Positions 1-32,000 are shown, counted from the stretch's first letter. The stretch is 32,000 nucleotides of DNA from Candidatus Methanophagaceae archaeon (GCA_003194425.1 PQXB01000001.1:460444-492443); one strand, 5' to 3'. The notes: a model not told the origin generated them from the sequence alone. A program made the numbers and translations.

Positions 1-1
1 T

Positions 2-1516
2 ACGACAGAAATGAGCCGAGTGGCAAAGGTCGCAGGCACAGAGGGAAAACTGACCGAGCGGGCGTTAGTTCCCGGTGTCGCAGGCAGCTGGAAAGAGATT
101 GTCGAGTCCTTAAACGGCTTAATTTACACCGTCGCAGAATTCACGCTCGAGATGAGGAGAATCCTCGACAACATCTCCAAGGGCAACTTGACCGAGAAAT
201 TTGCAATGCCCGTAGCAGGCGACTTCAGAATAATGTCTGACACTGTCAATAAAACAGTCGACAGCTTCAATCTAATCGGCAGCGAAGTGTCACGGGTGAC
301 GAGGGAAGTAGGAGTAGAAGGGAAGCTCGGTGCAAAAGGGGAAGTTCCGGGTGTCGCGGGTGCCTGGAAGGAGCTGACAAATAATGTGAACACTCTCTCT
401 GCAAACCTAAAGATTCAGGTTGGAGACATTGCAAAGGTAGCCACCGCGTTAGCCAACGGCGACCTTACACAGAAAATCACTGCAGAAGCAAAAGGCGAGA
501 TCCTGCAGCTCAAGGAGACGATCAACAGTATGGTCGACAGCCTCAACGTCCTCGTTGCTCGGGTTCGGGATTCCGCTACTACTGTCGCCTCCTCAGCTCA
601 GGGCATTGCAGCCTCGGGCACCGAAATGAGCACCTCCACGATGCAGGTAGCAGCCTCAGTGCAGCAAATCGCAAAGGGCGCGCAGGATCAGGCAGAGAAG
701 ACAGACGCGGTCTCCAAGTCCGCAGAGCAGATTTCAAAGGCTGCTACCGAGGTCGCCGAGCGGGCAGACGAAGTGAACAAGGCGGCATTTGCTGCTGATA
801 AAAGTGCCCAGGCAGGTCTTAAAACCGTGGACGAGGTCGTTAAAAGTATGCAGGGAATTTCAGAGGTGGCAGAGGCGACCTCGACAACAGTCGAGACGAT
901 GACGCAGCGTGGGGAGGAGATCGCAAAAATACTGGATGTTATCACAGACATCGCGTCGCAGACGAACCTGCTTGCACTGAACGCCGCGATTGAGGCTGCG
1001 AGGGCTGGCGAGGCTGGCAGGGGCTTCGCAGTAGTCGCAGAAGAAATCCGCAAACTCGCCGAGAACAGCAGAATCTCTGCAGGCGAGATCGCGGAACTTG
1101 TGAAGTCAATCCAGAAGGAGACCGTCTCTGCTTCAAAGGCTGCGAAGACAATGACAGAGAGCGTGACCGCGGGCAGGGAAGCGACGAACAAGTCCTCTGC
1201 GGCTCTCGATAACATCTTGTTTACAATGAAGCAGACCGCAAAGACAGCGAAAGCGATTTCAGAAGCAGCAGCACAACAGAGAACGAGCATTGAGTCGGTC
1301 GTGAAGCGAGTGGAAGAGGTCTCAACGATTGCAGAGGAGACGGCGGCGGGTTCTGAAGAATCTTCTGCCTCTGCACACGAACTGACCTCTGCGATGGGGG
1401 AGCTCACCGCCTCGGGTCAGGAGCTGGTAAAAATCGCCGCAGAACTCCTCGACGCCGTGGCAATCTTCAAACTCGCCGGTAAAACTGTGTGTAGAAGAGA
1501 GGGTAGAGAGGGGTAG
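2..1516 (+). CDS. methyl-accepting chemotaxis protein, 5'-truncated by the window edge (poly-HAMP plus MCP signalling domain)
   Basis: The frame is open from nt 2, with no stop before the ATG at 11. Repeated HAMP-like units are present ([10 protein letters not shown].., [18 protein letters not shown]). The MCP hairpin core is [45 protein letters not shown]. Confidence 0.9.
425..1480 (+). repeat. copy 1 of a ~1.06-kb near-identical segment shared by the two tandem MCP genes
   Basis: It aligns to 2054..3109 at a constant offset of 1629 nt, which keeps the frame. Long identical blocks alternate with diverged blocks at about 830-905 and 1125-1260. Confidence 0.9.
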
Positions 1517-1534
1517 AGAGGAGTAGAGAGAAAG

Positions 1535-3130
1535 ATGGGGAGGAGAGTAAGAAAAGGAGAACAGAAAGAGAAATACAAAATCGTACTAATCGCAGCCCTT
1601 TTAGGCGTTTGCTGCTTTCTTACTTATTATTTTTATGTGGTTCTCTCAACAGGCGTTGTCTTTACCCACTTCTTTTACATTCCAATCATTTTAGCAGCGC
1701 TGTGGTGGGGAAGAAAAGGAACAGTTGTAGCGATTTTTTTAGCCTTCTTGATAATTTTCAGTCACTTTTACTGCCACTTCTTTCTCAAAACAGGCGTGGA
1801 GACAATTTATGATTTGATTCGTGCTCCGATGTTTGTAATTATTTCTTTTATATTGGGTGTTTTAAGTGAGCGGATTGCGAAGATGGTTGAAAGCCTCAAC
1901 GCAATTGGCAGCGAAGTAGCAAGGGTAGCAAGAGAAGTAGGAGAAGAAGGAAATCTTGGCGTGCAGGGAGAGGTGCCGGGTGTCGAGGGAATTTGGAAGG
2001 AGCTGACAGACAATGTGAACACGCTGGTTGCAAATGTGACGAATCAGCTTCGCGACATTGCAAAGGTAGCCACCGCGTTAGCCAACGGCGACCTTACACA
2101 GAAAATCACAGTGGATGCGAAAGGCGAGATCCTGCAGCTCAAGGAGACGATTAACAATATGGTCGACAGCCTCAACGTCCTCGTTGCTCGGGTTCGGGAT
2201 TCCGCTACTACTGTCGCCTACTCAGCTCAGGGCATTGCAGCCTCGGGCACCGAAATGAGCACCTCCACGATGCAGGTAGCAGCCTCAGTGCAGCAAATCG
2301 CAAGGGGAGCGCAGGATCAGGCAGAGAAGACAGACGCGGTCTCCAAGTCCGCAGAGCAGATTTCAAAGGCTGCTACCGAGGTCGCCGAGCGGGCAGATGA
2401 AGTGAACAAGGCGGCATCTGCTGCGAATAAGAGTGCCCAGGCAAGTCTTAAAACCGTTGAAATGACTGTAAAAGCCTGTCAGAGTGTATCAGAAGCAGCA
2501 GAGAAAACATTTGCAACTGTTGAGAGAATGATGCAGCGTGGCGAGGAGATCGCAAAAATACTGGATGTTATCACAGACATCGCGTCGCAGACGAACCTGC
2601 TTGCACTGAACGCCGCGATTGAGGCTGCGAGGGCTGGCGAGGCTGGCAGGGGCTTCGCAGTAGTCGCAGAAGAAATCCGCAAACTCGCCGAGAAGAGCAG
2701 AAAATCCGCAGGCGAGATCGCGGAACTTGTGAAGTCAATCCAGAATGAGACTGTCTCTGCTTCAGAAATGACGAAAAGAATGACTGAAACAGTGACAGCA
2801 AGCAGGGCAGCAAGGGCTAAATCTTCAGCCGCTCTCGATGACATCTTGTTTACAATGAAGCAGACATCAAAGGCAGCCCAGGCGATTTCAGAAGCAGCAG
2901 CACAGCAGAGAAGAAGCATTAAGTCGGTCGTGAAGCGAGTGGAAGAGGTCTCAACGATTGCAGAGGAGACGGCGGTGGGTTCTGAAGAGTCTTCTGCCTC
3001 TGCACACGAACTGACCTCTGCGATGGGGGAGCTCACCGCCTCGGGTCAGGAGCTGGTAAAAATCGCCGCAGAACTCCTCGACGCCGTGGCAATCTTCAAA
3101 CTCGCCGGTGAAGTAGGGAGAGAGGGGTAA
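1535..3130 (+). CDS. methyl-accepting chemotaxis protein with a membrane-embedded N-terminal module of about 4 TM helices and no obvious extracellular domain
   Basis: 531-aa ORF. The hydrophobic N-terminus spans aa 15-115, followed by a HAMP unit ([18 protein letters not shown]) and the same MCP signalling core as the upstream paralog. It starts 18 nt after the upstream stop. Confidence 0.9.
2054..3109 (+). repeat. copy 2 of the MCP paralog repeat
   Basis: See copy 1. The terminal ~190 nt are nearly identical up to ...atcttcaaactcgccggt. Confidence 0.9.
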
Positions 3131-3159
3131 TTGTTTAGGAAATTGTTTAGGAGTAGGAA

Positions 3160-3657
3160 ATGCCAAAAGAGACGAAAACATTTGTAATCTTCAGACTCGG
3201 AGAAGAGGAGTTCGGCGTGGAGGTAAAGAATATAAAGGAGATTACAAAGATGACAACAATCACAAGAGTTCCTCGCGCTCCTGATTTTATTGAGGGCGTG
3301 ATAAATCTCAGAGGCAGCCTCGCAACTGTCGTAAACCTCAGGAAACGGTTTAGGTTTGGTTTTGAGCCACGGGGGGAGACCGAGAGAGAGACCGAGACAG
3401 AAGCGGATTCGCGGATAATTATTGCAGAGTTAGAGGGCAAGCCTGTCGGGATGCTTGTTGACGCGGCAACCGAGGTGCTGCGGATTCCTGTCTCTGAGAT
3501 TGAGGCGACGCCCGAGATGGTCACGACAGAGGTTTCTAAAAAGTATTTGAAGGGCGTGGGCAAGGTTGAGAACCGCCTCATCGTCTTACTTGACTTGGAG
3601 CGGGTGTTGGGAAAGACAGATGAGGAGGAGAAGAAGAAGAAAAAGGGAAACGAATAA
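3160..3657 (+). CDS. cheW: chemotaxis coupling protein CheW
   Basis: FVIFRLGEEEFGVEVKNIKEI...RVPRAPDFIEGVINLRGSLATVVNLRKRF is a typical CheW fold signature. The gene sits in the che cluster. Confidence 0.9.
   Translation: MPKETKTFVIFRLGEEEFGVEVKNIKEITKMTTITRVPRAPDFIEGVINLRGSLATVVNLRKRFRFGFEPRGETERETETEADSRIIIAELEGKPVGMLVDAATEVLRIPVSEIEATPEMVTTEVSKKYLKGVGKVENRLIVLLDLERVLGKTDEEEKKKKKGNE
3376..3399 (+). repeat. 2 x 12 bp in-frame tandem repeat (gagaccgagaga, ETER) inside cheW
   Basis: Read directly: gagaccgagaga gagaccgagaca. Confidence 0.9.
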
Positions 3658-4678: not shown

Positions 4679-5707
4679 ATGATAAACGTGCTGGTAGTGG
4701 ACGACTCGTCGCTGATGAGGCGGCTGGTCTCGGAAATGCTGGATTCGGCACCAGACATACGAGTAGTAGGGACCGCCAGAGACGGGCGGGAGGCAGTAAA
4801 AAAGACAGAGAAGCTCAGACCTGATGTCGTAACGATGGATGTTGAGATGCCAAAAATGGACGGTCTAACCGCTCTGTGCTGCATAATGGCGAGAACGCCT
4901 GTGCCTGTCGTGATGCTCACTGCGATGGGTAAAGTAGAAGCAGACCTCGCCGTGAAGTCCTTTGAGTACGGTGCAGTGGAGTTCGTATCAAAACCCAGCA
5001 AAACCATCTCTTTGGACATAGAGGAGGTGAAAAATGAATTAGTGAGCAAGGTCAGGGCAGCCGCGACCGTGAATGTGAAAAAAATGAATTTTCGGGTTGA
5101 GGAGGTGGGGTTGGTAGAAAAACTGTTAACTCCGCCGAAGACCGACAAAAAAGTCCTGATTATTGGTGCCTCCACTGGAGGTCCTCAGGCACTCTCCGAA
5201 ATCGTTCCGAAACTTCATAGAACCTTCCCCTTAGCAGTCCTGATCGTTCAGCACCTGCCTCTTGGCTTCACGAAAAGCTTTTCAGAACGACTGAGCTGGC
5301 AGACCTCAATCGCATTGAAAGAGGCGGAAGAGGGGGATGTTTTAAAGCCAGGTCAGGCGTTCGTCGCACCAGCGGGCTACTACACACTTGTAAAAATCGG
5401 TAGGTTAAAATTGAAGAAATTGAAGAAGCGACCAAAAGGGAACAGCGCGCGACCAAGCATAGATGTAGCAATGAAATCGGCAGCAGAAGCCTACGGGGGT
5501 AGGGTGATTGGCGTCCTGCTCAGCGGTATGGGAAAGGACGGTGCAGAAGGGATGAAAGCAATAAAAGAACGCGGAGGAAAGACGATTGTGCAGGACGAGC
5601 TCACGAGTGTTATTTTTGGTATGCCGAGGGCGGCAATAGAGTTGGGTGCTGTGGACACGGTTGCACGACTGTCTGATATTGTTGAGGAGATTATAAGGGT
5701 GCTGTGA
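4679..5707 (+). CDS. cheB: chemotaxis methylesterase/glutaminase CheB (receiver plus esterase)
   Basis: The N-terminal receiver has VLVVDDS and VTMDVEMPKMDG. The esterase triad contexts are GASTGGPQAL, VQHLP and GMGKDGAEG. Confidence 0.9.
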   Translation: MINVLVVDDSSLMRRLVSEMLDSAPDIRVVGTARDGREAVKKTEKLRPDVVTMDVEMPKMDGLTALCCIMARTPVPVVMLTAMGKVEADLAVKSFEYGAVEFVSKPSKTISLDIEEVKNELVSKVRAAATVNVKKMNFRVEEVGLVEKLLTPPKTDKKVLIIGASTGGPQALSEIVPKLHRTFPLAVLIVQHLPLGFTKSFSERLSWQTSIALKEAEEGDVLKPGQAFVAPAGYYTLVKIGRLKLKKLKKRPKGNSARPSIDVAMKSAAEAYGGRVIGVLLSGMGKDGAEGMKAIKERGGKTIVQDELTSVIFGMPRAAIELGAVDTVARLSDIVEEIIRVL

Positions 5708-5741: not shown

Positions 5742-7538
5742 ATGGTTGATCTCTCAAAATATAAAGAACTGTTTGTAGACGAGTCGAGGGAGCATCTCCA
5801 ATGTATAAGCCGAAATCTGCTGGCTTTGGAGAAAGAACCAAAGAGCGAGAGCAAGAGCACAGACGCGTTAAATGAAATATTTCGGGAAGTGCACACGCTG
5901 AAAAGTATGGCTGCTACGATGGGTTGCGGGGAGATGGAAAAATTAGCACACGAGATGGAGAACGTGCTTGACGGGCTGAGGAGAAGGGGCGGGCTTGAGA
6001 AAGGGGAAGGGACAGTTGATGTTCTGTTAGAATGCCTTGACGGGCTTGAGACGCTTGTCGAAGGGGTCGCGACCGGGAAGACGGTTAGCCGAGATTTGAC
6101 GAGTCTGTATAAAAAACTGGAAAATGTAGCAGTGTCAACCGCTACAGCAGCGGAGGAAAAGGAGGGAGAGAAAGTAGAGGAAGGGAAGGAGGAAGGAAGG
6201 AAGGTAGAAGCTGAGAGGGAGGGAGAGGGAAAGGAGGAAGAGAAGGAGGAGGAAGAGAAGGAGGAGGAAAAGGAGGAAGGAAGGAAGGTAGAAGCTGAGA
6301 GGGAGGGAGAGGGAAAAGAGGAAGAGAAGGCAGCAGGAAGGGTTGGTCCTGCAATACGGTTGGGGGTAGAAAAGATACAGGCATTGCAGAACCTTGCGGA
6401 GGAATTGGCGATAGCAAAGATGAGGCTTCTCCAGATTGCGTCAGCCTCAAAACACGCCAGCCCTGTCCCTGAACTCAACGAGATAACCGCCACAATCGAC
6501 CGGCTCACATCAGAACTGCAGGACAAAGTAATGCGAATGCGGTTGTTCCCGGTTGGATTCCTATTTGACAGGTTTCCACGAGCCGTCAGGGATTTAAGCA
6601 GCAAAACAGGGAAAAAAGTAGCGTTCATTGTAACCGGTGTGGAGATAGAACTTGACCGTCTTGTGCTTGACGAGATAAACGACGCTGTAATGCATCTGCT
6701 TCGTAACGCGGTGGATCACGGAATAGAGAAACCAGAGGAGAGGAAAAAGGTTGGGAAGAAGGAGGAGGGGAAGGTAGTGTTGAGTGCGCGGAGAGAGGGT
6801 AACTCTGTTCTCGTGTCAGTCGAGGACGACGGTAGAGGAATGAACGTAGAACGACTTAAAAAGGTAGCGGTTGAACGAGAAATCATAACAAGCGAGGAGG
6901 CGTCAAGGATGAAGGAGGAGGAGGTTTATGAACTTCTTGGTGCGCCAGCGGCAGGACTGAGTACGGCGAAAAAAATCACGGATGTTTCAGGCAGGGGTGT
7001 GGGTTTTGATGTGGTGAAATCGAAAGTTAGATCGCTGGGTGGAAGCGTCAAAATATCGTCAGAAAAAGGAGGGGGGACAAAAGTTGAATTGCGTCTGCCT
7101 TTGACTACAGCGATTATTCGTTCTCTGCTCGTTGGCGCTGGAGAGGAGAAATACGCTATTCCGTTGGATTCGGTAAGGGAAATAGTGGCGGTTGGAGAGG
7201 TTGAAGGAAAAGAGAATTTTAGATATCGGGGGCGGGTTCTGCCACTGCTGAGGCTGAAAAAGATTTTGGACATTCCTGGTTCTGGAGACGACGAGAACGA
7301 GAAAGACGAGAAAGATGAGAAAGACGAAAAAGAAAAGGGTAGGTTGGGATCCGTTGTCGTGGTGGAAAGAGACGACAAATTGTTTGGGATTCTGGTGGAG
7401 AGACTTGTTGGTCTGCAGGAGACGGTAGTAAAGCCGTTGGAAGGGCTGCTCAAGGACAGGCAGGGGTTTGCAGGCGCGACAATTCTCGCCGACGGCTCGG
7501 TTGCACTCATTTTGGATGTAGGCGAGTTGGTGCAGTAG
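5742..7538 (+). CDS. cheA: chemotaxis histidine kinase CheA
   Basis: HPt His box (EVHTLKSMAATMG), N box (HLLRNAVDHGIE), G1 (VEDDGRGM), G2 (GRGVGFDVV) and a C-terminal CheW-like P5 domain. E/K-rich low-complexity linkers are present. Confidence 0.92.
   Translation: MVDLSKYKELFVDESREHLQCISRNLLALEKEPKSESKSTDALNEIFREVHTLKSMAATMGCGEMEKLAHEMENVLDGLRRRGGLEKGEGTVDVLLECLDGLETLVEGVATGKTVSRDLTSLYKKLENVAVSTATAAEEKEGEKVEEGKEEGRKVEAEREGEGKEEEKEEEEKEEEKEEGRKVEAEREGEGKEEEKAAGRVGPAIRLGVEKIQALQNLAEELAIAKMRLLQIASASKHASPVPELNEITATIDRLTSELQDKVMRMRLFPVGFLFDRFPRAVRDLSSKTGKKVAFIVTGVEIELDRLVLDEINDAVMHLLRNAVDHGIEKPEERKKVGKKEEGKVVLSARREGNSVLVSVEDDGRGMNVERLKKVAVEREIITSEEASRMKEEEVYELLGAPAAGLSTAKKITDVSGRGVGFDVVKSKVRSLGGSVKISSEKGGGTKVELRLPLTTAIIRSLLVGAGEEKYAIPLDSVREIVAVGEVEGKENFRYRGRVLPLLRLKKILDIPGSGDDENEKDEKDEKDEKEKGRLGSVVVVERDDKLFGILVERLVGLQETVVKPLEGLLKDRQGFAGATILADGSVALILDVGELVQ
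6187..6331 (+). repeat. 84-bp period in-frame tandem duplication in the CheA P1-P3 linker
   Basis: aggaggaaggaaggaaggtagaagctgagagggagggagagggaaa occurs at both 6187 and 6271. Confidence 0.85.
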
Positions 7539-7603
7539 TTGGTGCAGTAAAAGGAGGCTTCCGCTCCTTAATAGAGACTTAATAGAGAGACAGCTAGAAG
7601 AAA

Positions 7604-9073
7604 ATGAGGGTGTGGCTAAAGAACGGCACGGTTTACGACCCTGCGAACGGGATAAACGGCGAGCGGTTGGACATTTTCGTTGCCGACGGGAAAATCGTGG
7701 AGGAGCCAAGAGAAAAAGAAAAGACGAGAATAATCGACGCAGCTGGCAAGGCGGTACTGCCAGGCGGAATTGACCCACACAGCCACGTGGCGACTTACGG
7801 GCTGAACTTGGCGAGGTTCTTGTTCGGGTTTCCGACGGTGAGCGAGGTGGGCGGTGCTTACGCTAAAATGGGCTACACGCACGTGAACGAGCCGTTAATG
7901 ACTTTGAACACCGCGAACTACGTGCACCACGAACTCAGCTGCATTCCAATTTTGGACACTTCCGCGTTCCTCGTTCTAAACCTGCTCGAGATTGAGAAGG
8001 AAATTCGAGAGGGCGAGAAGGAGGCGGTTGAGAACGCGGTTCTTTTTCTCCTAAACCTCACGAAAGCGGTCGGCGTTAAGATTTACGACACGAGGGTGAA
8101 GTACGCGAAGAAAGGCTTCTTTTACAGGGGAGTGAGCAGGGCGAAGTGTCTAAATTTTTTTCGCGGGGCGGTGCCGAGGGTGCAGTTGAGGACGACTCCG
8201 GAGTTGCTGGACGAGGACACGGAGGTCTTGAGCGGCTTCTGCCTGACTAACCTCGCGGCAGGCGTTGACAGCGAAGAGAGGTGGGAGGCGGCGAAAGAAG
8301 TGCTGAAGAAAGGCGGGTCTGCCGACCTCGGCGTGAAGAAAGGCGTTTCCGCCGACTCTGTCGAGAAATTCGTTAGCGTGGACGTTGGGTTAGAGCAGCC
8401 GTTGGTGTTTTCGAAGCCGAGCGAGAGCGGGAAAGTGGAAGCGGGGTCGCTGAGGTTCGCACTCGAGGCTTTGGAGTTCTTGAGGTCAGGTTCGGGTTCG
8501 GGCTGCTGCGTCTCGTTCTCAACCGACAGCCCCTTCGGACTCCCTTTTTGGTCTTACCCCAAAATATTCGCAAGCCTGCTGAACCGCGAGAACGGGTGTT
8601 CGCTCTACGAACTCGCAGAACTCACGAGAACGAACCCTGCGAGGCAGCTCGGCTTGCTACAGCAGAACAACGGCAAAGGCAACGGCAAAGGCAACGGCAA
8701 AGGCAACGGCAAAGGCAACGGCAAAGGCAACGGCAAGGGACACCTGGGCGTTGGTGCGGACGCGGACATTGCAGTCTACGACCTCGACGAAAAAACAGGG
8801 AGAGCAGAGTTAGAGAGGCGGCTGGGCTGTTGCGAGTGGCTCTTGAAATCTGGCGAGGTTGTAGTCCGTGCAGGCAGGCTGTGTAAAAGTGCGGGCAGTG
8901 CAAAGAAGAGGTCTTTTTTTTTCGTGCCGAAGACTAAGGCGAGAGAGACCGAGAGAGAGACCGAGAGAGAGTCAGAGAAAGAGACCGAGACGGTGCGGAG
9001 AATCTGCAACCGACGGTCGTTCCGAGCAGAGCACCTCAAGGTCTTCACTGCACAGGCACATTTTGCGAAGTAG
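7604..9073 (+). CDS. amidohydrolase resembling formylmethanofuran dehydrogenase subunit A (FwdA/FmdA-like), not next to other fwd genes
   Basis: The N-terminus is LKNGTVYDPANGINGERLDIFVADGKIVE...LPGGIDPHSHV (HxH metal motif). The C-terminal part has HLGVGADADIAVYD. This pattern is remembered from FwdA proteins and has not been search-verified. Confidence 0.65.
   Translation: MRVWLKNGTVYDPANGINGERLDIFVADGKIVEEPREKEKTRIIDAAGKAVLPGGIDPHSHVATYGLNLARFLFGFPTVSEVGGAYAKMGYTHVNEPLMTLNTANYVHHELSCIPILDTSAFLVLNLLEIEKEIREGEKEAVENAVLFLLNLTKAVGVKIYDTRVKYAKKGFFYRGVSRAKCLNFFRGAVPRVQLRTTPELLDEDTEVLSGFCLTNLAAGVDSEERWEAAKEVLKKGGSADLGVKKGVSADSVEKFVSVDVGLEQPLVFSKPSESGKVEAGSLRFALEALEFLRSGSGSGCCVSFSTDSPFGLPFWSYPKIFASLLNRENGCSLYELAELTRTNPARQLGLLQQNNGKGNGKGNGKGNGKGNGKGNGKGHLGVGADADIAVYDLDEKTGRAELERRLGCCEWLLKSGEVVVRAGRLCKSAGSAKKRSFFFVPKTKARETERETERESEKETETVRRICNRRSFRAEHLKVFTAQAHFAK
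8669..8740 (+). repeat. 6 x 12 bp in-frame repeat (aacggcaaaggc, NGKG) in the FwdA-like gene
   Basis: Five perfect units plus one variant unit (aacggcaaggga). Confidence 0.95.
8945..8992 (+). repeat. 4 x 12 bp in-frame repeat (gagaccgagaga family) in the FwdA-like gene
   Basis: gagaccgagaga x2, then gagtcagagaaa and gagaccgagacg. Confidence 0.9.
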
Positions 9074-9425: not shown

Positions 9426-10658
9426 GTGCTGGTCGTGCCAGCGCAGGCGTACGTGGGGCAGGGCGAAGGAGGAGCGACGGTCGTTCTGTGGCATTTTAAC
9501 GAGGGAGCGGGAGATGGAACGAAGGATTTCTCTGGTCACTGCAATTCTGGGGAAATCACAGAAGCAAAGTGGACTGACGGCAAGTTCGGATCTGGGTTGT
9601 ATTTTGAAGAGAAGCAGGTAGTTGGCGCGAGAGATTCCAAGAGTTTCAGTCTGATCCCAAAGGCGAACCAAGTTACACTTGAAGCCTGGGTCTTCCCTGC
9701 GAAAGAAACCAAAGAAAGTCTGATAATTTTTAAAGACAAGGAGTACAAACTTGGTTTGGTAGAAAATCTCGTCTTCTTCCAAATCTGCTCCAAAGGCGAG
9801 TGGCAGAAGCCTCATGTCTGTGAGAAGAAGAAGTTAGACACGGAGCGGTGGCACCACGTGTCCGCGAGCTTTGACGGCAAGGTCACCAAAATCTTCGTTG
9901 ACGGCTGTCAGAATTACGAAAGTTACGAGGACACTGGAAAGCAAATAACCGATTCCAAAAGTCCTTTCTTCGTGGGCGGAGACGGTGAAGGTGGCTACGG
10001 TTGGGTTGGCAGGATTGACGAGGTTCGGGTCTTGTGCAGGGCACACTCTGCCTTCAACGGTGGCGTAGTTCTGAACGAGGTCTGCTGGAAGGACCCTAGT
10101 GACGGATCCCAGTGGATTGAACTTCACAATCACGGCGGTGTGGATGTCAATATTCGCGGCTGGCTCTTTTTGGATGACGAAGGAAATAAGCTTGCTAACT
10201 TTGTTGAGCAGGATAAAATCATCAGGGCAGGCACCTGGGAGGTTTTGTATAAAATAGAGAATCTTGAAGCTCAGGATTCCATCAGAGCCTACGACCTTGA
10301 TCCCGATAACGATGGTAGTGATGTTCTCGTAAAACCGAATTACGCCAACCTGGTGGACTTCGTCGCGTGGGGCGAGAAAGTAAGCTCTAAAGAATACAAC
10401 GATGGTGGAGACGATGCCGTGAGAGCCGGGTTCTGGACTGCGGGTGAGTATGTCAGGGTCAACACTGGTGCTGGTGACGATGATGTTTACCTGAAAGTGG
10501 ACGGGAACAACGACGAGGCGGTGGAGGACTGGAGCACGAGAGGAGAGCCAACTCCGGGTGCGCCAACTCCGGATGTCTCGGCGCTCGTGCTGTTCGCGAG
10601 CGGGCTGGTGTTTATTTTGGTGTATTTTGTCTGGAGGAAGACAGCCTCACAAGACTAA
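9426..10658 (+). CDS. secreted or surface protein with a LamG-like (concanavalin-type) domain, a lamin-tail domain and a C-terminal TM anchor
   Basis: The lamin-tail-like core is VVLNEV..QWIELHNHGGVDVNIRGWLFLDD. The C-terminus is PTPGAPTPDVSALVLFASGLVFILVYFVWRK (TM helix plus basic tail, sortase-type signal shape). The GTG at 9426 is the track start. A signal peptide is encoded upstream in the same frame from about 9372 (see findings). Confidence 0.7.
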   Translation: MLVVPAQAYVGQGEGGATVVLWHFNEGAGDGTKDFSGHCNSGEITEAKWTDGKFGSGLYFEEKQVVGARDSKSFSLIPKANQVTLEAWVFPAKETKESLIIFKDKEYKLGLVENLVFFQICSKGEWQKPHVCEKKKLDTERWHHVSASFDGKVTKIFVDGCQNYESYEDTGKQITDSKSPFFVGGDGEGGYGWVGRIDEVRVLCRAHSAFNGGVVLNEVCWKDPSDGSQWIELHNHGGVDVNIRGWLFLDDEGNKLANFVEQDKIIRAGTWEVLYKIENLEAQDSIRAYDLDPDNDGSDVLVKPNYANLVDFVAWGEKVSSKEYNDGGDDAVRAGFWTAGEYVRVNTGAGDDDVYLKVDGNNDEAVEDWSTRGEPTPGAPTPDVSALVLFASGLVFILVYFVWRKTASQD

Positions 10659-10716
10659 CTGCCCTCACAAGACTAACTGCCCTCACAAGACTAACTGCCC
10701 TCACAAGACTAACTGC
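10645..10716. repeat. 4 x 18 bp perfect tandem repeat (cctcacaagactaactgc) spanning two convergent gene ends
   Basis: Unit 1 holds the TAA of the LamG gene (10656-58). Unit 4 holds the TGA of pit (10701-03, minus strand). Confidence 0.95.
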
Positions 10717-18692: not shown

Positions 18693-18762
18693 CCTTTCCT
18701 TTCTTCCCTTTCCTTTCTTCCCTTTCCTTTCTTCCCTTTCCTTTCTTCCCTCTCCTTTCTTC
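18693..18762. repeat. 5 x 14 bp tandem repeat (cctttcctttcttc) inside a ~160-nt polypyrimidine tract
   Basis: Four perfect units and one variant. It lies between the DUF4389 stop and the pspA start. Confidence 0.95.
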
Positions 18763-18779
18763 CTCCTTTTTCCGTAACT

Positions 18780-19097
18780 TTATTTCTTCTCGTAGATCTC
18801 AGTCGGCTTTGGGAATATCCCTGGTCTCTCGTCGGTCATCCAGTAAATATAGCCAATTAAATGCACATAATATTCCAGGTACCCCTTAACGAAGTCGCTC
18901 AACCCCTCGTTCCTGCGTCCAAGAATCAATATCACGAACCACTGAATAACCATGCATATCTCCGCGATGAGTCCGTACACACCTAATACCAGCGCGATAG
19001 CGATCGAATACACGATTCTGACAAGCAGTTCCAACCGACTTGCGTCCCGTTCGTAAGCAAACAACTGTTTCAATCCTCCCTGCCTTTCTTCTCCCAT
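18780..19097 (-). CDS. DUF4389-like small membrane protein
   Basis: The pattern ..SRLELLVRIVYSIAI...IQWFVILILGRRNEGLSDFVKGYLEYYVHLIGYIYWMTDERP matches the remembered DUF4389 consensus. Confidence 0.7.
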   Translation of the reverse strand: MGEERQGGLKQLFAYERDASRLELLVRIVYSIAIALVLGVYGLIAEICMVIQWFVILILGRRNEGLSDFVKGYLEYYVHLIGYIYWMTDERPGIFPKPTEIYEKK

Positions 19098-19116
19098 TTC
19101 CTTTCTTCTCCCATTT
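19083..19116. repeat. 2 x 17 bp perfect duplication (cctttcttctcccattt) that includes the DUF4389 start codon
   Basis: It creates two ATGs on the minus strand, at 19097 and 19114. Confidence 0.95.
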
Positions 19117-19125: not shown

Positions 19126-19330
19126 CCTTTCGTTACTTTCCTCTTAGTTACTTTTGCCCTCTTTTTTAAGATATGCTCTGCTTTATAAAAAGGTTTCAGA
19201 TGCGAAATGCTCTGTAGAATAATTCAATGAGGCAATAGCTATTTGGGCGTCCCACCTAAATACGCTAACTTCTTGTTGCTCCTACATATTTTCTTTATTT
19301 TCTTTATGTCCCTAACGTGTCACCGTTATA

Positions 19331-19393
19331 GTCTCTTCCTTTTCACAAAAAGTCTCTTCCTTTTCACAAAAAATCTCTTCCTTTTCACAAAAA
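19331..19393. repeat. 3 x 21 bp tandem repeat (gtctcttccttttcacaaaaa) upstream of rps6e
   Basis: Two perfect units and one with a single substitution. The array ends 58 nt before the ATG at 19451. Confidence 0.95.
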
Positions 19394-19450
19394 ATACTTT
19401 ACGATTTATTCAACACAGCACCACTTAACAGATTTAGGAGAAAGAAGAAA

Positions 19451-21045: not shown

Positions 21046-21140
21046 TTTTCCCCTCTCTTTTTGTCTTGCTTCTTCTTCTTTTTTGTCTTGCTTCTTCTTA
21101 TTAATTCTAACCAAAAGCAAAGAAAGAGGGAAATGAAAAG

Positions 21141-21797
21141 ATGGTTACAGAAGACCGAATAAGAACCGCCGTAGCCACGATAAAACGCGGTGGCACGGTA
21201 ATTTACCCCACTGAAACGGTCTACGGGTTAGGAGCCGACGCCTTCTCCGAGGACGCAGTGCGGAAGGTCTACAAAATAAAAAACCGAGATTTCTCGCAGC
21301 CACTCTCGGTTGCTGTCTCGTCCTTCGAGATGCTGCAGGAGGTTGCGTTTGTGGCTTCGGAGTGCTTAGAGGTTCTGAGCGAGCTGCTTCCGGGACCTGT
21401 TACGGTCTTGTTGCGGAGGAAGGCTGGAGTTGCGCCGGTCTTGACTGCGGGGTCTGCGGGGTCTGAAGTTGAAGTTGTTGGCGTGCGGTTTCCGGAGAAC
21501 GAGGTTGCGCGGCGGCTAATTGAAGGGGCGGGACCGCTTACTGCGACGAGTGCGAACCTCTCGGGCAGGGCGCCGCCGACTTGCGTTGAAGAAGTAGAAA
21601 TAAAAGCAGACATTATTTTAAATGGCGGTAAGTGTAAGTACAGTGTGCAGTCCACCGTTGTGGATTTCTCGGCGACGGCGACGCCAAAAGAGAAGAAAAT
21701 AGAAATAAAAAGGAGAGGAGCAGGTTATGAAAGAATATTGCACATCCTGCGGCGTAAAGTTGCAGGAGAAGGGCTACACGGTCTTTCCGTGCCCTAA
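21141..21797 (+). CDS. tsaC: L-threonylcarbamoyladenylate synthase, YrdC-domain type (Sua5/TsaC family)
   Basis: [22 protein letters not shown]...KIKNR..SQPLSV...TSANLSG are the YrdC motifs. Confidence 0.85.
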
Positions 21798-22346: not shown

Positions 22347-23693
22347 ATGAGAAAATACGCAACCGAAATAACTGCGAACGATGACGGAGAACGCGTCTGC
22401 GTCGCGGGCTGGGTGCACGAGAAGCGGGACTTGGGCGGTGTCTTCTTCCTCGTCCTGCGAGACCGCAGCGGACTCGCTCAGATTACTCTGCACAAACACA
22501 AGGGTGAGGGTAAAGCAGAACAAGAGCAGGAGCAAGAACAGGAGCAAGAACAGGAGCAGGGGCTGTTTGAGCGGGTGAGGAAGGTGCCTCGTGAGTCGGT
22601 GGTCGCGGTGGAGGGCAGAGTAAAGAGCGAGCGGAAGGCGCCGAACGGGTACGAAATAATTCCTGAGCGGTTTGAGGTGCTGAGCGAGGCGTCGCAGGTT
22701 CTACCGCTTGACACGACTGGAAAAGTCGGCGCCGAGTTGGACACGAGGTTGGACGCGCGGTTTATGGATTTGCGGACCGAGCGGACGAAGGAGATTTTTC
22801 TAATTCGCAGCCTCGTCCTCAAGGCGGTGCGGGAGTTCCTGACCGCCGAGCGTGGGTTCGTGGAAATAAACACGCCGAAGATCGTGAGTGCAGCGACCGA
22901 AGGAGGGACTGCTCTGTTCCCGATTTCGTATTTCGAGCGAGAAGCGTTCTTGAACCAGAGTCCGCAGCTTTACAAGCAGATTTTGATGGCTTCGGGTTTT
23001 GACTGCGTCTACGAGATTGCCCCGATTTTCCGCGCAGAGGAGCACGACACCACAAAGCACCTGAACGAGGCGACTTCGGTGGATGTGGAGGTCGCGTTCG
23101 CAGATCACGAGGTAGTGATGAAAATCTTGGAGGAGCTCGTTGCGGCGGTGTACTCGGAGGTTGCGAATTATCCGGGCTTGGAGAGGCTGGGAGTAAGCCT
23201 CAATGTCCCGGAACTGCCGTTCAGACGCGTAACCTACGACGAGGCGGTTGAACTGCTCTCCGAGGCGGGCGAGGAAATCGAGTGGGGCGACGACCTCGGC
23301 ACTTCCGCAGAGCACAGGCTGGGCGAGCAAATCGGCGAACTTTACTTCGTCACTGACTGGCCGTGTGCGACGAAGCCGTTTTACGCTCAGCCTGCTGCTG
23401 CCGCGGGGGAAGGAGAGCGGATTTGCAACGCGTTTGACTTAATGCATCCAAGAATGGAGCTCGCTTCGGGCTCGCAGCGTGTTCATTCTTACGAGCTGCT
23501 GAAGCGGAAGATTGAAGAGAAGGGGTTGAGTGCGGACGATTTTGAGTTTTACCTCGAGCCGTTTCGGTACGGAATGCCGCCGCACGCGGGCTGGGGACTC
23601 GGCGTTGAGCGGCTCTTGATGACAATGCTGGAGGTGGAGAACATTCGGGAAGTGGTGCTGTTTCCTCGGGACAGGCGGAGGCTGGCGCCGTGA
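22347..23693 (+). CDS. aspS: aspartyl-tRNA synthetase, archaeal type
   Basis: It has an N-terminal OB anticodon-binding domain. Class II motif 2 is FRAEEHDTTKHLNE and motif 3 is GLGVERLLM. Confidence 0.92.
   Translation: MRKYATEITANDDGERVCVAGWVHEKRDLGGVFFLVLRDRSGLAQITLHKHKGEGKAEQEQEQEQEQEQEQGLFERVRKVPRESVVAVEGRVKSERKAPNGYEIIPERFEVLSEASQVLPLDTTGKVGAELDTRLDARFMDLRTERTKEIFLIRSLVLKAVREFLTAERGFVEINTPKIVSAATEGGTALFPISYFEREAFLNQSPQLYKQILMASGFDCVYEIAPIFRAEEHDTTKHLNEATSVDVEVAFADHEVVMKILEELVAAVYSEVANYPGLERLGVSLNVPELPFRRVTYDEAVELLSEAGEEIEWGDDLGTSAEHRLGEQIGELYFVTDWPCATKPFYAQPAAAAGEGERICNAFDLMHPRMELASGSQRVHSYELLKRKIEEKGLSADDFEFYLEPFRYGMPPHAGWGLGVERLLMTMLEVENIREVVLFPRDRRRLAP
22518..22559 (+). repeat. about 3.5 x 12 bp in-frame repeat (gagcaagaacag, EQEQ) in aspS
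   Basis: It encodes AEQEQEQEQEQEQEQG, inserted in the N-terminal domain. Confidence 0.9.
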
Positions 23694-29054: not shown

Positions 29055-30297
29055 CCTTCTCCCTTTGAGTCTTTCTACTCTTCCGCCAGAAATGTCTTTT
29101 CTTCCGACTCTCTTTCTCCTCTCGCCCCTCCCCTCGCCCCTCCCTGTCAAATTCCCGCAGCAGTTCCTTCTGCCTTTTACTCAGTTTTGTCGGCGTTACC
29201 ACACGCACTTTCACCAGCAGGTCTCCTTTCTCTCTCCCGCCGCCGTAGCCTTTTAAACTCGGCATTCCGCGGTTCTTCAGTTGAAAGACCGTGCCCGACT
29301 GCGTTCCCGCAGGCATTTTCACGCTCGCCTTCTCCCCTTCCACCGTGCTTACTTCAATCTCGTCGCCAAGCGCCGCTTGTGCAAACCGAACAGGGACTTC
29401 GCAGAACAGGTCGTTCCCGTCCCGGCTAAAGAACTCGTGCTCCTGCACGTGCAGCACGACAAACAAGTCCCCAGACGGTCCGCCTCTCTCTCCTGCTCCT
29501 CCTTCGCCCGCGACCCTTAGTCTGCTTCCTGTCTCCACACCCGCGGGCACCCGCACTAAAATCCGCTTCTTCACTCTGACCTTCCCGCTACCCCCGCAGT
29601 TCTCACAGGGCTTCTCAACTACCTCACCTCTGCCTCCGCAGCGGGGGCAGGTGGAGACGGAAATGAATTGAGCGAAACCCTGCCTCTGCACTCTTTTTAC
29701 TTGTCCCGCTCCTCCGCAGGTGGGACAGGTTTTTAGCCCGCTGGAACCCGAGCTCGCACTCGCACCTGTTCCGCCACACGAGGGGCACCGCTCCTCCTTA
29801 GAGACGCTTATTTCCTTCTCCACACCCTTCGCCGCTTCCTCAAGGGTAATTTCAAGGTCGTACCTGAGGTCCCTTCCTCTTTCTGGTCCGTACCGTTCCT
29901 CTGCTCCTGCTCTCGTGTAACCTCTGCCGCCGCCGAAGAGGTCGTCAAATCTAAAATCGCCTCGCCCGAAGAAGCTACCGAAGAGGTCTCCGAAAATGTC
30001 CTCTACGTCGCTGGACCTCGTGAAATTTGACCACTCGAAACCGCCGGGACCAAAATCAACCCCAGCACGCCCGAACCTGTCGTAGTTCGCTCGCTTCTGC
30101 GGGTCCGACAAGACCTCGTAAGCCTCCGAGATCTCTTTAAACTTCTCCTCTGCTTCTTTTGGGCTCTTCCTGTTGACGTCGACGTCAGGGTGGTATTTCT
30201 TGGCTAACCTGCGGTAAGCACGCTTCACCTCTTCTTTCGACGCTTCTCTGCCCACGCCCAGAATTTCGTAGTAGTCTTTTTCCTTCCTTTCTACCAA
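29047..30297 (-). CDS. dnaJ: chaperone DnaJ (type I: J domain, G/F region, four CxxCxGxG motifs)
   Basis: DYYEILGV...KKYHPD is the J domain. The zinc-finger motifs are [24 protein letters not shown] and CENCGGSG. The start is a TTG at 30297, preceded by GGAGGAGG-like repeats. Confidence 0.92.
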
Positions 30298-30394
30298 CTC
30301 ACCTCGTCCTCCTCCTCTCGTCCTCCTCTCGTCCTCTTCTCGACTCGTCCTTCGCTGTTAAAGAATTTATCTTTTAAGGCTTAAATTTAAAAAA

Positions 30395-30991: not shown

Positions 30992-31000
30992 GTAAGAAAA

Positions 31001-31834
31001 ATGAAAGGTTTAAAAGGGAAGGGAAAACCTGCGGTAGTGGGCGTGCTGAAAAGCCTCTCCGTTCAGGAGGCGTTGCGAGCGAAGGAGAGCGGGGCGGACG
31101 CGGTAGAGTTGAGAATTGACCTCTTGAATTTAGATTTGGGGGAGAAGGTAAATTTGGAGAGGGGGGGGAAGGGAGAGGAGGAGGGAGTAGAGAAGGTGCG
31201 AGAGTTCGTTGCGAGATTCAAAAAGGAGGGCGGGGGACTGCCAATAATCGCGACGAACCGCAGAAAAGAGGAAGGCGGGTCTTTCGGGGGCACCGAGGAA
31301 GAGCGGGTTGGTCTGCTAACTCGCCTCCTCGAGACTGCGGAGCTGGACGCTGTAGACATCGAGTTCTTCGCTCCCGAGGCGGGGAAAAAGGCTGTTTTAG
31401 AAACAGCGAGAAGACACCGCAGAACCGTTATTCTCTCGTTCCACGACTTCACAGGAATGCCAAGCCGCGAGGAGATTTTGGAAATCGTTGCGAGAATGCA
31501 CGAGGAAGGTGGGGGAACAGGTGAGGGCGGGTGCGTTGCAAAAATCGCGGTGACGCCGAGGACTCTGGGCGACGCTCTGTTTCTGCTTGACCTGACCTAC
31601 AAACTCTCAAGCGAGGGGAAGGCGGTGGCTACGATTGGAATGGGTGCAGTAGGAAGGCACTTGCGAGTAGTTGCACCCCTCTACGGCTCTGCACTGACCT
31701 ACGGCTTCCTGGAAGGCGAAGAAGGCGAAGAAGGAGAGGGAGGGGAGGAAGGAGAGGAAGGAGGAGTGGCTGTAGCACCGGGTCAGTTTAGTGTGAAGGA
31801 GTTAAGGGGAATGCTGCAAAATCTAATCTTCTGA
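31001..31834 (+). CDS. aroD: 3-dehydroquinate dehydratase, type I
   Basis: GADAVELRIDLL, IATNRRKEEGG, ILSFHDF, AKIAV (Schiff-base Lys context) and GMG..G...RV..PLYGSALTYG. Confidence 0.88.
   Translation: MKGLKGKGKPAVVGVLKSLSVQEALRAKESGADAVELRIDLLNLDLGEKVNLERGGKGEEEGVEKVREFVARFKKEGGGLPIIATNRRKEEGGSFGGTEEERVGLLTRLLETAELDAVDIEFFAPEAGKKAVLETARRHRRTVILSFHDFTGMPSREEILEIVARMHEEGGGTGEGGCVAKIAVTPRTLGDALFLLDLTYKLSSEGKAVATIGMGAVGRHLRVVAPLYGSALTYGFLEGEEGEEGEGGEEGEEGGVAVAPGQFSVKELRGMLQNLIF
31712..31765 (+). repeat. 6 x 9 bp in-frame purine repeat (gaaggcgaa family) in aroD
   Basis: It encodes EGEEGEEGEGGEEGEEGG, inserted between the conserved LTYGF and APGQ segments. Confidence 0.9.
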
Positions 31835-32000
31835 ACGAGTTTATTGATTCTACGCACTGCATTCCCCGAGCCTTTAAAATCCGCCCTACCGCCTCACGAA
31901 ACCGCCGTTCCACCCGCACTCCCTCTCGCTCCAGCCGAGCCGAGAGTTTCTTGTTAAACCCGTTCCCCGCCCTGTCGTAGTCTGTCAGAATCGCGACCCT
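31788..32000 (-). CDS. Toprim-domain small primase-like protein, 5' part outside the window
   Basis: Hand translation of the minus strand gives RVAILTDYDRAGNGFNKKLSARLEREGVRVERRFREAVGRILKARGMQCVE..., open to the window edge. The stop is at 31788-31790. It overlaps the aroD 3' end by 47 nt. Confidence 0.5.
   Translation of the reverse strand, partial: RVAILTDYDRAGNGFNKKLSARLEREGVRVERRFREAVGRILKARGMQCVESINSFRRLDFAAFPLTPSH

Follow-up and report, generated by a model that had tools for sequence, protein, structure and literature searches.

Short tandem duplications at unusually high density in chromosomal DNA of an ANME-1 archaeon

The 32,000-nucleotide stretch of DNA analysed here, hereafter called the window (GCA_003194425.1, PQXB01000001.1:460444-492443), carries numerous short head-to-tail duplications both in conserved genes and at gene boundaries, which raises the question of whether they reflect base composition, errors of assembly, old insertions or a duplication process that is still under way. 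The DNA is of the ordinary chromosomal type and comes from an uncultured thermophilic, methane-oxidising ANME-1 (Methanophagales) archaeon. Exact protein matches were found in ANME-1 ex4572_4, a MAG of the same species, and on a contig of 1.19 Mb belonging to a 'Candidatus Methanophagaceae' MAG, and the gene content is of the housekeeping type, including chemotaxis, ribosomal, tRNA-synthetase and repair genes. The GC content is 52%, and the coding strand is strongly purine-rich.

Repeat content of the window

A search with TRF returned an array at every one of the 27 loci pointed out in a sequence-only reading of the window, with the unit lengths given there. Most copies had also been described as perfect, which is correct, though not for all of them: approximately 17 arrays have 95-100% identity between copies, and the rest are those at 1496, 3376, 7297, 8941, 14389, 15535, 17863 and 31711, whose copies are 79-92% identical. 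An exact scan of the 32 kb revealed 27 perfect tandem duplications with a unit of at least 9 bp (894 bp covered), including 17 with a unit of at least 12 bp, versus a mean of 0.31 (maximum 2) and 0.01, respectively, in 100 dinucleotide-preserving shuffles within 500-bp blocks. The unit range is 9-23 bp with one unit of 84 bp, and two to three copies are the commonest. As in VNTRs or minisatellites in the general sense, head-to-tail units of at least about 7 bp are present in numbers varying between strains. Nothing resembling a CRISPR array was found, as the units abut directly without spacers and Rfam gave no match. The repeats and the two genes with revised assignment are as follows (percentages are identities between copies; contigs are those of related strains).

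1496..1530, 10 bp x 3.6, 92% (TRF), stop codon of the first MCP gene and spacer to the second MCP gene
3129..3152, 12 bp x 2, perfect, from the MCP2 stop codon through the MCP2-CheW spacer; equal length in 11 contigs
3376..3401, + strand, 12 bp x 2.2, 92%, in frame in CheW; equal length in 11 contigs
5408..5427, + strand, 9 bp x 2.2, perfect, frame-preserving, KLKKLK in CheB; extra unit in 5 of 11 contigs
6186..6340, + strand, 84 bp x 1.8, 95%, E/K-rich CheA linker; one unit fewer in 6 of 9 contigs (CheA of 570 vs 598 aa)
7297..7333, + strand, 9 bp x 4.1, 89%, frame-preserving, within CheA; not polymorphic
7525..7549, 12 bp x 2, perfect, doubling the final codons and the stop codon of CheA
7567..7588, 11 bp x 2, perfect, between genes; only one copy in 1 of 10 contigs
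8668..8736, + strand, 12 bp x 5.75, perfect, (NGKG)n in the FwdA-like amidohydrolase; at least 8 alleles in 12 strains
8941..8990, + strand, 12 bp x 4.2, 86%, (RETE)n near the amidohydrolase C-terminus; polymorphic, with a frame-shifted strain allele (L095/P0169) in which the conserved C-terminus is replaced
10645..10716, 18 bp x 4, perfect, spanning the convergent 3' ends of a LamG-domain gene and PHO4; 1-4 copies by strain, a different 14-bp unit at the same site in other strains
14355..14461, - strand, 18 bp x 2.7, then 12 bp x 6.1, 83-90%, frame-preserving, in a loop of UbiA; 5 or more length alleles, every one a multiple of 3
15058..15103, 23 bp x 2, perfect, within a species-specific 126-codon ORF (orf126) of the minus strand
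15535..15614, 22 bp x 3.8, 87%, ahead of the MutL start codon by 40-120 bp; strains range from about 1 to 3.6 copies
16706..16783, + strand, imperfect arrays of period 16 and 14, MutL inter-domain linker
16858-16898 and 17275-17322, + strand, two imperfect period-12 arrays, MutL linker; not polymorphic
17863..17910, - strand, 15 bp x 3.3, 79%, PspA C-terminal tail; not polymorphic
18684..18763, 14 bp x about 5, perfect over 4.9 units, upstream of PspA, polypurine on the sense (minus) strand; 2-5 copies by strain
19083..19116, 17 bp x 2, perfect, doubling the start codon region of a DUF4389 gene; single copy in 6 of 7 contigs
19287..19307, 9 bp x 2.3, perfect, intergenic; one unit shorter in 5 contigs
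19332..19395, 21 bp x 3, 97%, ahead of the S6e gene by 55-120 bp; only one copy in 3 contigs
19819-21045, S-adenosylmethionine (SAM) synthetase gene
21058..21099, 22 bp x 1.9, between the divergent SAM synthetase and Sua5 genes
21445..21465, + strand, 9 bp x 2.3, perfect, frame-preserving, AGSAGS in Sua5
22347-23693, AspRS gene
22521..22558, + strand, 12 bp x 3.2, (EQ)n in the AspRS OB-fold domain; 4 aa shorter in strain variant P0001
25158..25236, two perfect arrays of 9 bp x 2.3 and 21 bp x 2.2, spacer 3' of the aIF5B stop codon
28102..28131, - strand, 15 bp x 2, perfect, frame-preserving, giving LGSGS x 2 in a DNA methyltransferase
29116..29144, - strand, 12 bp x 2.4, in frame in the DnaJ C-terminal tail (EGRG x 2)
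30310..30342, 11 bp x 3, 95%, directly upstream of the DnaJ start codon
30482..30557, + strand, 21 bp x 2.7 and, overlapping with it, 15 bp x 2.5 (perfect), frame-preserving, giving PFFSL repeats in a membrane protein of the YdjM/DUF457 type
31711..31763, + strand, 9 bp x 5.9, 84%, E/G-rich AroD C-terminal tail

Several assignments of the sequence-only reading had to be revised, namely those of the SAM synthetase and AspRS genes, for which the coordinates above apply, and that of a repeat loop in aIF5B, since the arrays in question lie past the stop codon and add nothing to the protein. The MutL linker does carry arrays as had been claimed, some of them being imperfect with a period of 14-16. 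The 23-bp duplication at 15058-15103 is present, but its placement in noncoding DNA was too simple: it frameshifts orf126, which is intact in L093, L098, L100 and L107, and a separate duplication of about 11 bp is found at the same spot in L096, L097 and L099.

Density, reading frame and variation between strains

Perfect repeats amount to 8.4 per 10 kb in the window and to 4.7-13.8 per 10 kb in same-species DNA outside it (about 19 kb, non-redundant), and to 5.8 in the strain contig L107, versus 0.89 in ANME-1 relatives (652 kb) and 0.39 in outgroups (337 kb). The suspected excess over related archaea is thereby borne out, the window being about 10-fold denser than ANME-1 relatives for units of at least 9 bp and 25-fold for units of at least 12 bp, and the high density is lineage-specific on the approximately 50 kb of the species' genome sampled in all. 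Among ANME-1 the trait is patchy: Ca. Methanoxibalbensis ujae has a high density, Ca. Methanospirare jalkutatii an intermediate one and the other Methanospirareceae a low one.

The proposed filtering by reading frame is clearly visible: the unit is divisible by 3 in all 26 repeats within conserved genes versus 10 of the 18 noncoding or gene-edge repeats (Fisher p = 2.5e-4). Out-of-frame alleles, found in orf126 (two independent events), in MutL of strain L100 and at the amidohydrolase C-terminus of L095, occur where tolerable or are rare, and most loci stay in frame. In L100, one 16-bp unit is missing from the linker, which splits MutL into 414 + 180 aa. Spacers, gene ends and promoter-proximal regions have about five times the repeat density of conserved genes.

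The genic units are 74.5% purine on the sense strand compared to a background of 59%, with codons for E, G and K over-represented; among the bases of the repeat units, A makes up 33% (background 26%) and G 42% (background 33%). Purine loading is equally strong in repeat-poor relatives, so composition alone cannot account for the trait. A partial third copy is present at about half of the two-copy loci, and about half of the two-copy duplications with a unit of at least 11 bp are flanked by 0-1 bp of microhomology. Such scarcity is unlike what is expected of classical slippage between short direct repeats already present, and the initial duplication may therefore come about in another way.

Alleles were taken from about 25 near-identical strain contigs, obtained in independent metagenome assemblies. 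Unit-sized indels were observed between strains at 14 or more loci, and nearly every between-strain indel of at least 6 nt falls within repeat loci. At least 14 length changes were counted at 6 loci versus 94 SNP sites in 7.4 kb, giving a length-change rate per locus about 180 times the substitution rate per site. The copy-number polymorphism that the sequence-only reading proposed to look for is present: independent assemblies of many metagenomes have the loci in common and differ in unit number. Three independent assemblies that are 1-6 SNPs apart have the same alleles at repeat loci, and this sharing between near-identical haplotypes argues against assembly noise, although assembler bias in array length or within-sample heterogeneity may affect alleles; the CheA array, with 155 bp, is longer than k = 141.

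Both the AspRS (EQ)n insert, a segment of low model confidence, and the inserts of the FwdA-like amidohydrolase are missing in every orthologue at 83% identity or less, so these inserts are recent and not ancient, in agreement with the earlier view that the copies are recent.

Proposed process and its alternatives

It is likely that short tandem duplication and slippage are ongoing in this lineage at an unusually high rate and are filtered by selection, as the sequence-only reading had proposed; the comparisons of density, orthologues, strains and reading frame are all in its favour. A stretch of local sequence, 9-23 bp long and in one case 84 bp, would be copied head to tail, and the resulting array would gain or lose entire units, most likely by slipped-strand mispairing in replication or repair synthesis. 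Harmful changes would then be purged by selection, with conserved genes keeping only units divisible by three. Surviving genic repeats would sit in linkers, loops and tails and encode E/G/K-rich segments, spacers, gene ends and promoter-proximal regions would accept any unit length, and the outcome would be fast-evolving VNTR loci differing between co-existing strains. Expansion and contraction are probably due to slippage, which purine-rich tracts may favour; archaeal PolB and PolD, as far as cited in PMC9879509, slip on repeat templates in vitro.

Assembly artefacts, or low-complexity sequence resulting from purine-rich codon usage, are very improbable and largely refuted as the origin of the repeats. 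Repeats are known to cause assembly errors (PMC9879509), the window has the longest allele at many loci and the purine bias of its coding strand is strong. Nevertheless, the loci were recovered in MEGAHIT, SPAdes, JGI and Logan assemblies alike, most arrays are 80 bp or shorter and thus below the k-mer length, other assemblies hold alleles equal to or longer than those of the window, and identical alleles recur in near-identical haplotypes. With regard to low complexity, already doubted in the sequence-only reading, both the scarcity of duplications in composition-preserving shuffles and the equally purine-loaded, repeat-poor relatives speak against it. Another possibility is an adaptive, regulated diversification in which the repeats are kept as contingency or tuning loci and not as a by-product of mutational bias, the proposed effects being disordered protein segments, altered promoter spacing and genes switched on or off. 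This might be suggested by the arrays 40-120 bp upstream of MutL, S6e, PspA, DnaJ and SAM synthetase/Sua5, by the two independent frameshifting duplications that struck one spot of orf126, by the splitting of MutL in one strain, and by the E/G/K-rich repeat peptides, which are like Borg amino-acid repeats (PMC9879509). We consider it unlikely, as the repeats are spread across unrelated housekeeping genes, 3' spacers and duplicated stop codons with no apparent benefit, and their density peaks at the least constraint, as predicted by neutral mutational input with purifying selection. Moreover, orf126, which lacks homologues beyond the species, is perhaps not a gene at all, and the MutL frameshift is present in only one of 16 members of the protein cluster.

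A weakened mismatch-repair or flap-processing system, letting slippage intermediates escape correction, is rather improbable. MutL shows array variation in both the linker and the promoter region, with a frameshift in L100; however, the window and 15 of the 16 cluster members have it at full length. MutS-type repair typically recognises loops smaller than the 9-23 nt that would be formed here. Tandem duplications are found among the spontaneous mutations of Sulfolobus acidocaldarius (PMC7785828, PMC3139894). Halobacterium MutS and MutL are reported to be dispensable for the mutation rate (PMC2816208). The involvement of a dedicated enzyme, with staggered-nick fill-in, integrase-like or special polymerase activity, is among the possibilities discussed for Borgs and appears just as improbable in the present case. 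It would fit the many two-copy duplications without microhomology, the Borg-like density and properties of the repeats and the patchy distribution among ANME-1 lineages. At the same time, the units vary widely in size, their boundaries have no common motif visible by eye (a non-statistical inspection), no candidate enzyme is encoded within the window and the units lack the spacers of CRISPR arrays.

Relation to known repeat systems

The closest counterparts are the repeats of Borgs (Schoelmerich et al. 2023, PLoS Biol, PMC9879509), which likewise consist of perfect head-to-tail units derived from local sequence in genes and spacers; within genes, their unit length is a multiple of 3, and the E/K-rich peptides they code for are prone to disorder. 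In both cases the copy number varies within populations, homologues and close relatives are devoid of the repeats, and about half of the two-copy loci are flanked by a partial extra copy. Perfect arrays with at least three units and at least 50 nt, which serve to define Borg repeats at a coverage of about 0.6-1% of the sequence, number three in the window, or 0.65% of 32 kb, compared to 0.58-1.02% in Borgs (PMC9879509, Table 1), and none was found in 703 kb of relatives. The genic units here are divisible by 3 in 26 of 26 cases, the exceptions being the alleles of orf126, MutL and the amidohydrolase mentioned above; no out-of-frame alleles inside ORFs are reported in PMC9879509. Unlike Borgs, which are giant linear extrachromosomal elements of Methanoperedens with a GC content of about 33%, the present DNA is a cellular chromosome with housekeeping genes and belongs to an ANME-1 MAG. 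In addition, the unit bias appears to be for purines in general and not for A specifically, A being raised but G more so, the arrays are mostly short, and the proportion of noncoding or edge units divisible by 3 is above the 14-38% of Borgs (PMC9879509).

Bacterial VNTR or contingency loci, in which simple-sequence repeats bring about phase variation, resemble the present repeats as hypermutable arrays with strain-specific unit number, and orf126 and MutL in L100 do switch frame. Classical contingency loci, however, have units of 1-8 bp, are restricted to a few surface or host-interaction genes and are mostly frameshifting, whereas here units of 9-23 bp are scattered through the region and overwhelmingly preserve the frame. 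The mutL gene of E. coli and Salmonella contains a 6-bp repeat hotspot. The tandem repeat inside the archaeal mutL is similar in that a change of one unit alters MutL and could in principle toggle a mutator state, but it is an imperfect 16-bp linker repeat with the frameshift in one assembly only. In pyrE of Sulfolobus acidocaldarius short tandem duplications arise spontaneously (PMC7785828, PMC3139894), so there is nothing unusual about the underlying mutation itself; in that case, however, it is a rare event seen in the laboratory, in contrast to the accumulation to Borg-like density in natural genomes observed here.

No description of such repeats for ANME-1 was found in the published literature. 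The repeats work like Borg repeats, but their carrier is not a Borg, and comparable repeats had until now been reported only from the giant "Borg" elements found in other archaea that oxidise methane.

Gene content, affiliation and strain-level structure

The window belongs to a cellular chromosome and is not a mobile element. Its coding density is 91%, and its gene map was taken from Pfam annotation.

Genes of the window (position, strand, product; Pfam)
11-1516 and 1535-3130, plus, two MCP genes
3160-7538, plus, CheW, CheY, CheX-like, CheB and CheA
7604-9073, plus, FwdA-like amidohydrolase
9426-10658, plus, LamG/LTD protein
10701-13918, minus, PHO4, PhoU-like and PhoU/TrkA-C
13958-14884, minus, UbiA
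15656-17542, plus, MutL
17847-18617, minus, PspA
18780-19097, minus, DUF4389 protein
19451-19822, plus, ribosomal protein S6e
19819-21045, minus, archaeal SAM synthetase
21141-21797, plus, Sua5
21959-22333, plus, S8e
22347-23693, plus, AspRS
23787-25135, minus, Band7/NfeD
25230-27020, minus, aIF5B
27031-29054, minus, MjaV-like nuclease and DNA methyltransferase
29047-30297, minus, DnaJ
30395-30991, plus, YdjM
31001-31834, plus, AroD

Five of the encoded proteins match exactly entries on a 1.19-Mb contig of a 'Candidatus Methanophagaceae archaeon' MAG, and several are also identical to proteins of 'ANME-1 cluster archaeon ex4572_4'. The nearest other genomes belong to ANME-1/Methanophagales, with about 80-83% amino-acid identity for SAM synthetase and AspRS. 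The species is labelled Ca. Methanospirareceae in some database entries; in AspRS the named ANME-1c species are farther from the window than the ANME-1a/b genomes, the identity being 65% for Ca. Methanoxibalbensis ujae and 63-64% for Ca. Methanospirare jalkutatii. The long TTG-started SAM synthetase ORF gave no match in the exact-protein look-up, the real start lying 25 codons downstream. The minus-strand genes at 27031-29054 are probably a restriction-modification pair consisting of a 247-aa MjaV-family protein, assigned from precomputed Pfam annotation (a separate hmmscan gave no match for it), and an adjoining N6/N4 DNA methyltransferase, which contains a 15-bp duplication.

Strains of the species also differ in structure. 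The two tandem MCP genes (11-3130) are 89% identical over the 3' 1.2 kb, and in each of the ten other strain contigs covering the region (L082-L091, about 4700-9470) the first is replaced, upstream of the second MCP gene, by a 53-codon ORF and a protein of about 1000 aa, the length of which varies from 990 to 1010 aa; this replacement is a strain-level structural difference. A synteny breakpoint follows the amidohydrolase gene at about 9100-9400, the next genes being the LamG/PHO4 block in the window and strain contig L095, and a LeuA-like gene with shikimate dehydrogenase in L082 and L083 (15300-16900). Low-GC (43-44%) insertions that the window does not have occur in some strains, namely a PIN-domain toxin cassette in the SAM synthetase-S6e interval of L096 (971-2833) and a nitroreductase-like gene between the two PhoU genes in L095 (1772-3303); no tandem repeats were seen in these two islands, which are short. 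Upstream of the chemotaxis cluster, contigs L082-L089 possess at about 1270-2750 a gene coding for mannosyl-3-phosphoglycerate synthase, with a length of 468 to 486 aa between strains. The compatible solute that this enzyme produces is typical of (hyper)thermophiles, and the presence of the gene fits a thermophilic lifestyle.

Excess of tandem repeats over chance and over related archaea

A sequence-only reading had reported at least 28 tandem duplications in the window, mostly with perfect copies. All 27 loci that it listed appear as arrays in the Tandem Repeats Finder output with the same unit lengths. An independent exact scan found 27 perfect non-overlapping duplications with a unit of at least 9 bp and at least two copies, 17 of them with a unit of at least 12 bp, covering 894 of the 32,000 bases. 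In 100 shuffles preserving dinucleotide content within 500-bp blocks the mean number was 0.31 (maximum 2) for units of at least 9 bp and 0.01 for units of at least 12 bp, so the excess is far beyond chance or local composition. The observation itself is confirmed; identity between copies is 95-100% in about 17 arrays and 79-92% in the remainder. Neither Rfam nor a tRNA search gave a match in the window, and the intergenic arrays fit no known RNA family.

Density was compared throughout as perfect repeats with a unit of at least 9 bp per 10 kb in the exact scan. The window has 8.4 (5.3 for units of at least 12 bp), and the same species outside the window, represented by about 19 kb of non-redundant sequence with two strains per region, has 4.7-13.8, the whole species sample amounting to about 50 kb. 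L107, a long contig of another MAG that is 97.4% identical, has 5.8. The values drop to 0.89 (0.21 for units of at least 12 bp) in ANME-1-related genomes (56 loci, 652 kb) and to 0.39 (0.06) in outgroups (21 loci, 337 kb), and the nearest AspRS relatives with long contigs show 0-0.9. The loci fetched via SAM synthetase have no synteny with the window and served for the density comparison only, not for orthologue alignment.

High values recur in contigs of Ca. Methanoxibalbensis ujae (5.6-8.6) and in the ANME-1-LC contig L079 (5.9); Ca. Methanospirare jalkutatii has 2.3 perfect repeats plus many imperfect arrays, and two other Methanospirareceae contigs have 0-1.2. Repeat richness is thus not confined to the species of the window and is common, in different degrees, to a few thermophilic ANME-1 lineages. 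The region 915-7130 of L079, from a more distant ANME-1 MAG, shows a different flavour of repeat richness, with several arrays of 7-8 bp units in at least four copies, e.g. CCCTTAG and GGCTAAA. In a single 90% cluster, the AspRS entries of Ca. Methanospirare jalkutatii (P0113, P0295-P0308) have lengths of 481 to 520 aa, because the called start is altered by a 15-bp x 4.5 array immediately preceding the gene and because a 9-bp repeat coding for G/N/D in a loop varies in copy number (contig L112, arrays at 9908-9973 and 11121-11160).

Orthologue alignments date the AspRS and amidohydrolase insertions as recent. Among 23 aligned AspRS sequences the (EQ)n insert is limited to that of the window and to a variant 98% identical to it and shorter by one 12-bp unit (4 aa), and all orthologues at 83% identity or less are without it; the amidohydrolase insert, (NGKG)n, is likewise restricted to the species. 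In the predicted AspRS model, which is of only moderate quality (mean pLDDT 74.8), the repeat residues 52-71 separate a strand from a helix in the OB fold and have the lowest confidence within that domain. The AlphaFold model of the amidohydrolase was unusable (mean pLDDT 48).

Reading frame and copy number among strains

Thirteen of the 27 perfect repeats lie wholly within conserved genes, every one with a unit divisible by 3; another 13 lie in spacers or across gene ends, and one (23 bp) in orf126, a 126-codon minus-strand ORF. Non-coding sequence makes up 9% of the window and is enriched in repeats, seven of which are strictly intergenic (p = 0.009). When same-species DNA from outside the window is added, units are divisible by 3 in 26/26 genic cases vs 10/18 elsewhere (Fisher p = 2.5e-4), which bears out the earlier claim that genic units are multiples of 3 and the others unconstrained. 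Such a pattern is what duplications arising everywhere and in any length should leave behind once selection has purged the harmful ones.

Out-of-frame alleles were found as well. The 23 bp x 2 duplication at 15058-15103 frameshifts orf126, which is intact in four other strains, and an independent duplication of about 11 bp at the same spot disrupts it in three further strains; this putative gene has no homologue outside the species. In strain contig L100 the loss of one 16-bp linker unit (window 16724-16739) splits MutL into 414 and 180 aa (L100 558-1802 and 1-540), and if the split is real, the strain may have no working MutL or may produce the protein as two fragments. In L095 a frameshift at the (RETE)n array replaces the conserved C-terminus of the amidohydrolase. 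At 19083-19130 a 17-bp duplication copies the DUF4389 start codon, giving two ATGs 17 nt apart and mutually out of frame directly downstream of a ATATAAAAAA motif on the minus strand; speculatively, it could alter the choice of start.

Copy number was read from about 25 same-species contigs (95-100% nucleotide identity), which were found by exact-protein look-ups, come from many metagenomes and were assembled with MEGAHIT, SPAdes, JGI or Logan pipelines, each repeat locus being anchored on its flanks. Unit number differs at 15 loci among these independent assemblies.

Copy-variable loci (window position, unit length)
5408, 9 bp
6186, 84 bp
7567, 11 bp
8668, 12 bp
8941, 12 bp
10645, 18 bp
14389, 12 bp
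15058, 23 bp
15535, 22 bp
16706, 16 bp
18684, 14 bp
19083, 17 bp
19287, 9 bp
19332, 21 bp
22521, 12 bp

The (NGKG)n locus has at least eight alleles among 12 strains, and locus 10645 carries one to four copies of the 18-bp unit in some strains and a different 14-bp unit in others. Older imperfect arrays at 992, 2621, 3376, 7297, 11433, 16858, 17275 and 17863 are invariant. Essentially all indels of at least 6 nt between strains fall in repeat arrays, according to automatic classification and inspection of the rejected cases, and the repeats make protein lengths vary between strains in nearly every second gene. A 7.4-kb stretch shared by nine haplotypes contains 94 variable SNP sites vs at least 14 length-change events at only six repeat loci, i.e. 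about 180 times as many events per repeat locus as SNP events per nucleotide site. Three independent assemblies 1-6 SNPs apart (L093, L094 and L101) have the same alleles at all six loci, an agreement that speaks for inherited alleles and against assembly noise. The variation was read from assembled contigs. Most arrays are at most 80 bp long, under the k-mer of 141 of the MEGAHIT assemblies. The repeats may add to the fragmentation of the assemblies of this species, many contigs of which are only 1-5 kb.

Origin of the repeats and comparison with Borg elements

The proposal of an ongoing duplication or slippage process combined with selection for reading frame is supported by these results; its molecular cause is inferred. 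The strain differences in unit number would fit slipped-strand mispairing; archaeal PolB and PolD are cited in PMC9879509 as slipping on repeat templates, and in Sulfolobus acidocaldarius short tandem duplications are among the spontaneous mutations (PMC7785828, PMC3139894). Loci of under three copies fall into two groups of about equal size: at the junction, one has 0-1 additional matching bases, i.e. no microhomology, and the other a partial extra copy. A first duplication step without microhomology is not accounted for by classical slippage. The genic units are 74.5% purine on the sense strand vs 59% for all coding sequence and encode mainly E, G and K; the intergenic arrays, too, are polypurine when read on the strand of the neighbouring gene. 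The strand purine excess is as high in several repeat-poor relatives as in the window, which rules out purine loading as a sufficient cause. Footprints of transposon target sites were set aside because the unit lengths are too variable. Nothing in the window points to the reason for the high rate in this lineage. The MutL of the window is intact, as are 15 of the 16 members of its protein cluster.

The generic definition of VNTR/minisatellite loci fits these repeats, and a likeness to classical bacterial contingency loci is seen at a few sites only. The nearest described phenomenon is the tandem-repeat syndrome of Borgs, giant extrachromosomal elements of Methanoperedens, and the density matches: by the criterion of the Borg paper (perfect arrays of at least three units and at least 50 nt; PMC9879509) the window has three arrays covering 0.65% of bases, compared with 0.58-1.02% in Borgs and at most 0.01% in their Methanoperedens hosts (PMC9879509), and 703 kb of relatives contain no such array. 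Common to both are also the frame rule, the variability within populations, the absence from homologues, the disorder-prone peptides and, at about half of the two-copy loci, partial repeats at the flank. Borgs are reported to differ from their host chromosomes in exactly this richness (PMC9879509). The window is not a Borg: its repeats stand on the housekeeping chromosome of an ANME-1 archaeon.

Full-text literature searches for tandem repeats with ANME-1 or Methanophagales found no description of the phenomenon, and two ANME-1 genomics papers are silent on it; the one comparable case in archaea that the searched literature offers, that of Borgs, is extrachromosomal. In the window, perfect tandem repeats that resemble those of Borgs and evolve fast stand on the chromosome of an archaeal cell, where they reach core genes such as those for AspRS, DnaJ, MutL and CheA. 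Prokaryotes are normally repeat-poor, and in a survey of 117,861 genomes archaea ranked lowest among the domains in short-tandem-repeat density (PMC12699852). For ANME-1 populations in vents of the Guaymas and Pescadero type, the loci can serve directly to tell strains apart.

Borg-level density on a cellular chromosome means that the process can do without machinery encoded by Borgs, or at the least that it also operates outside them, and the repeat-rich and repeat-poor ANME-1 lineages form a natural comparison set for finding the cause. A further suggestion, which we consider rather unlikely, is that the Borg repeat syndrome is the footprint of a specific, possibly transferable activity making perfect duplications without microhomology, such as a polymerase variant, a nuclease variant or a missing processing factor, and that this activity is present in several thermophilic ANME-1 lineages; its carriers would be the species of the window, Ca. 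Methanoxibalbensis ujae and, less so, Ca. Methanospirare jalkutatii. If such an activity exists, the repeat syndrome would be no peculiarity of Borgs, and comparing repeat-rich with repeat-poor ANME-1 genomes could reveal the responsible gene.
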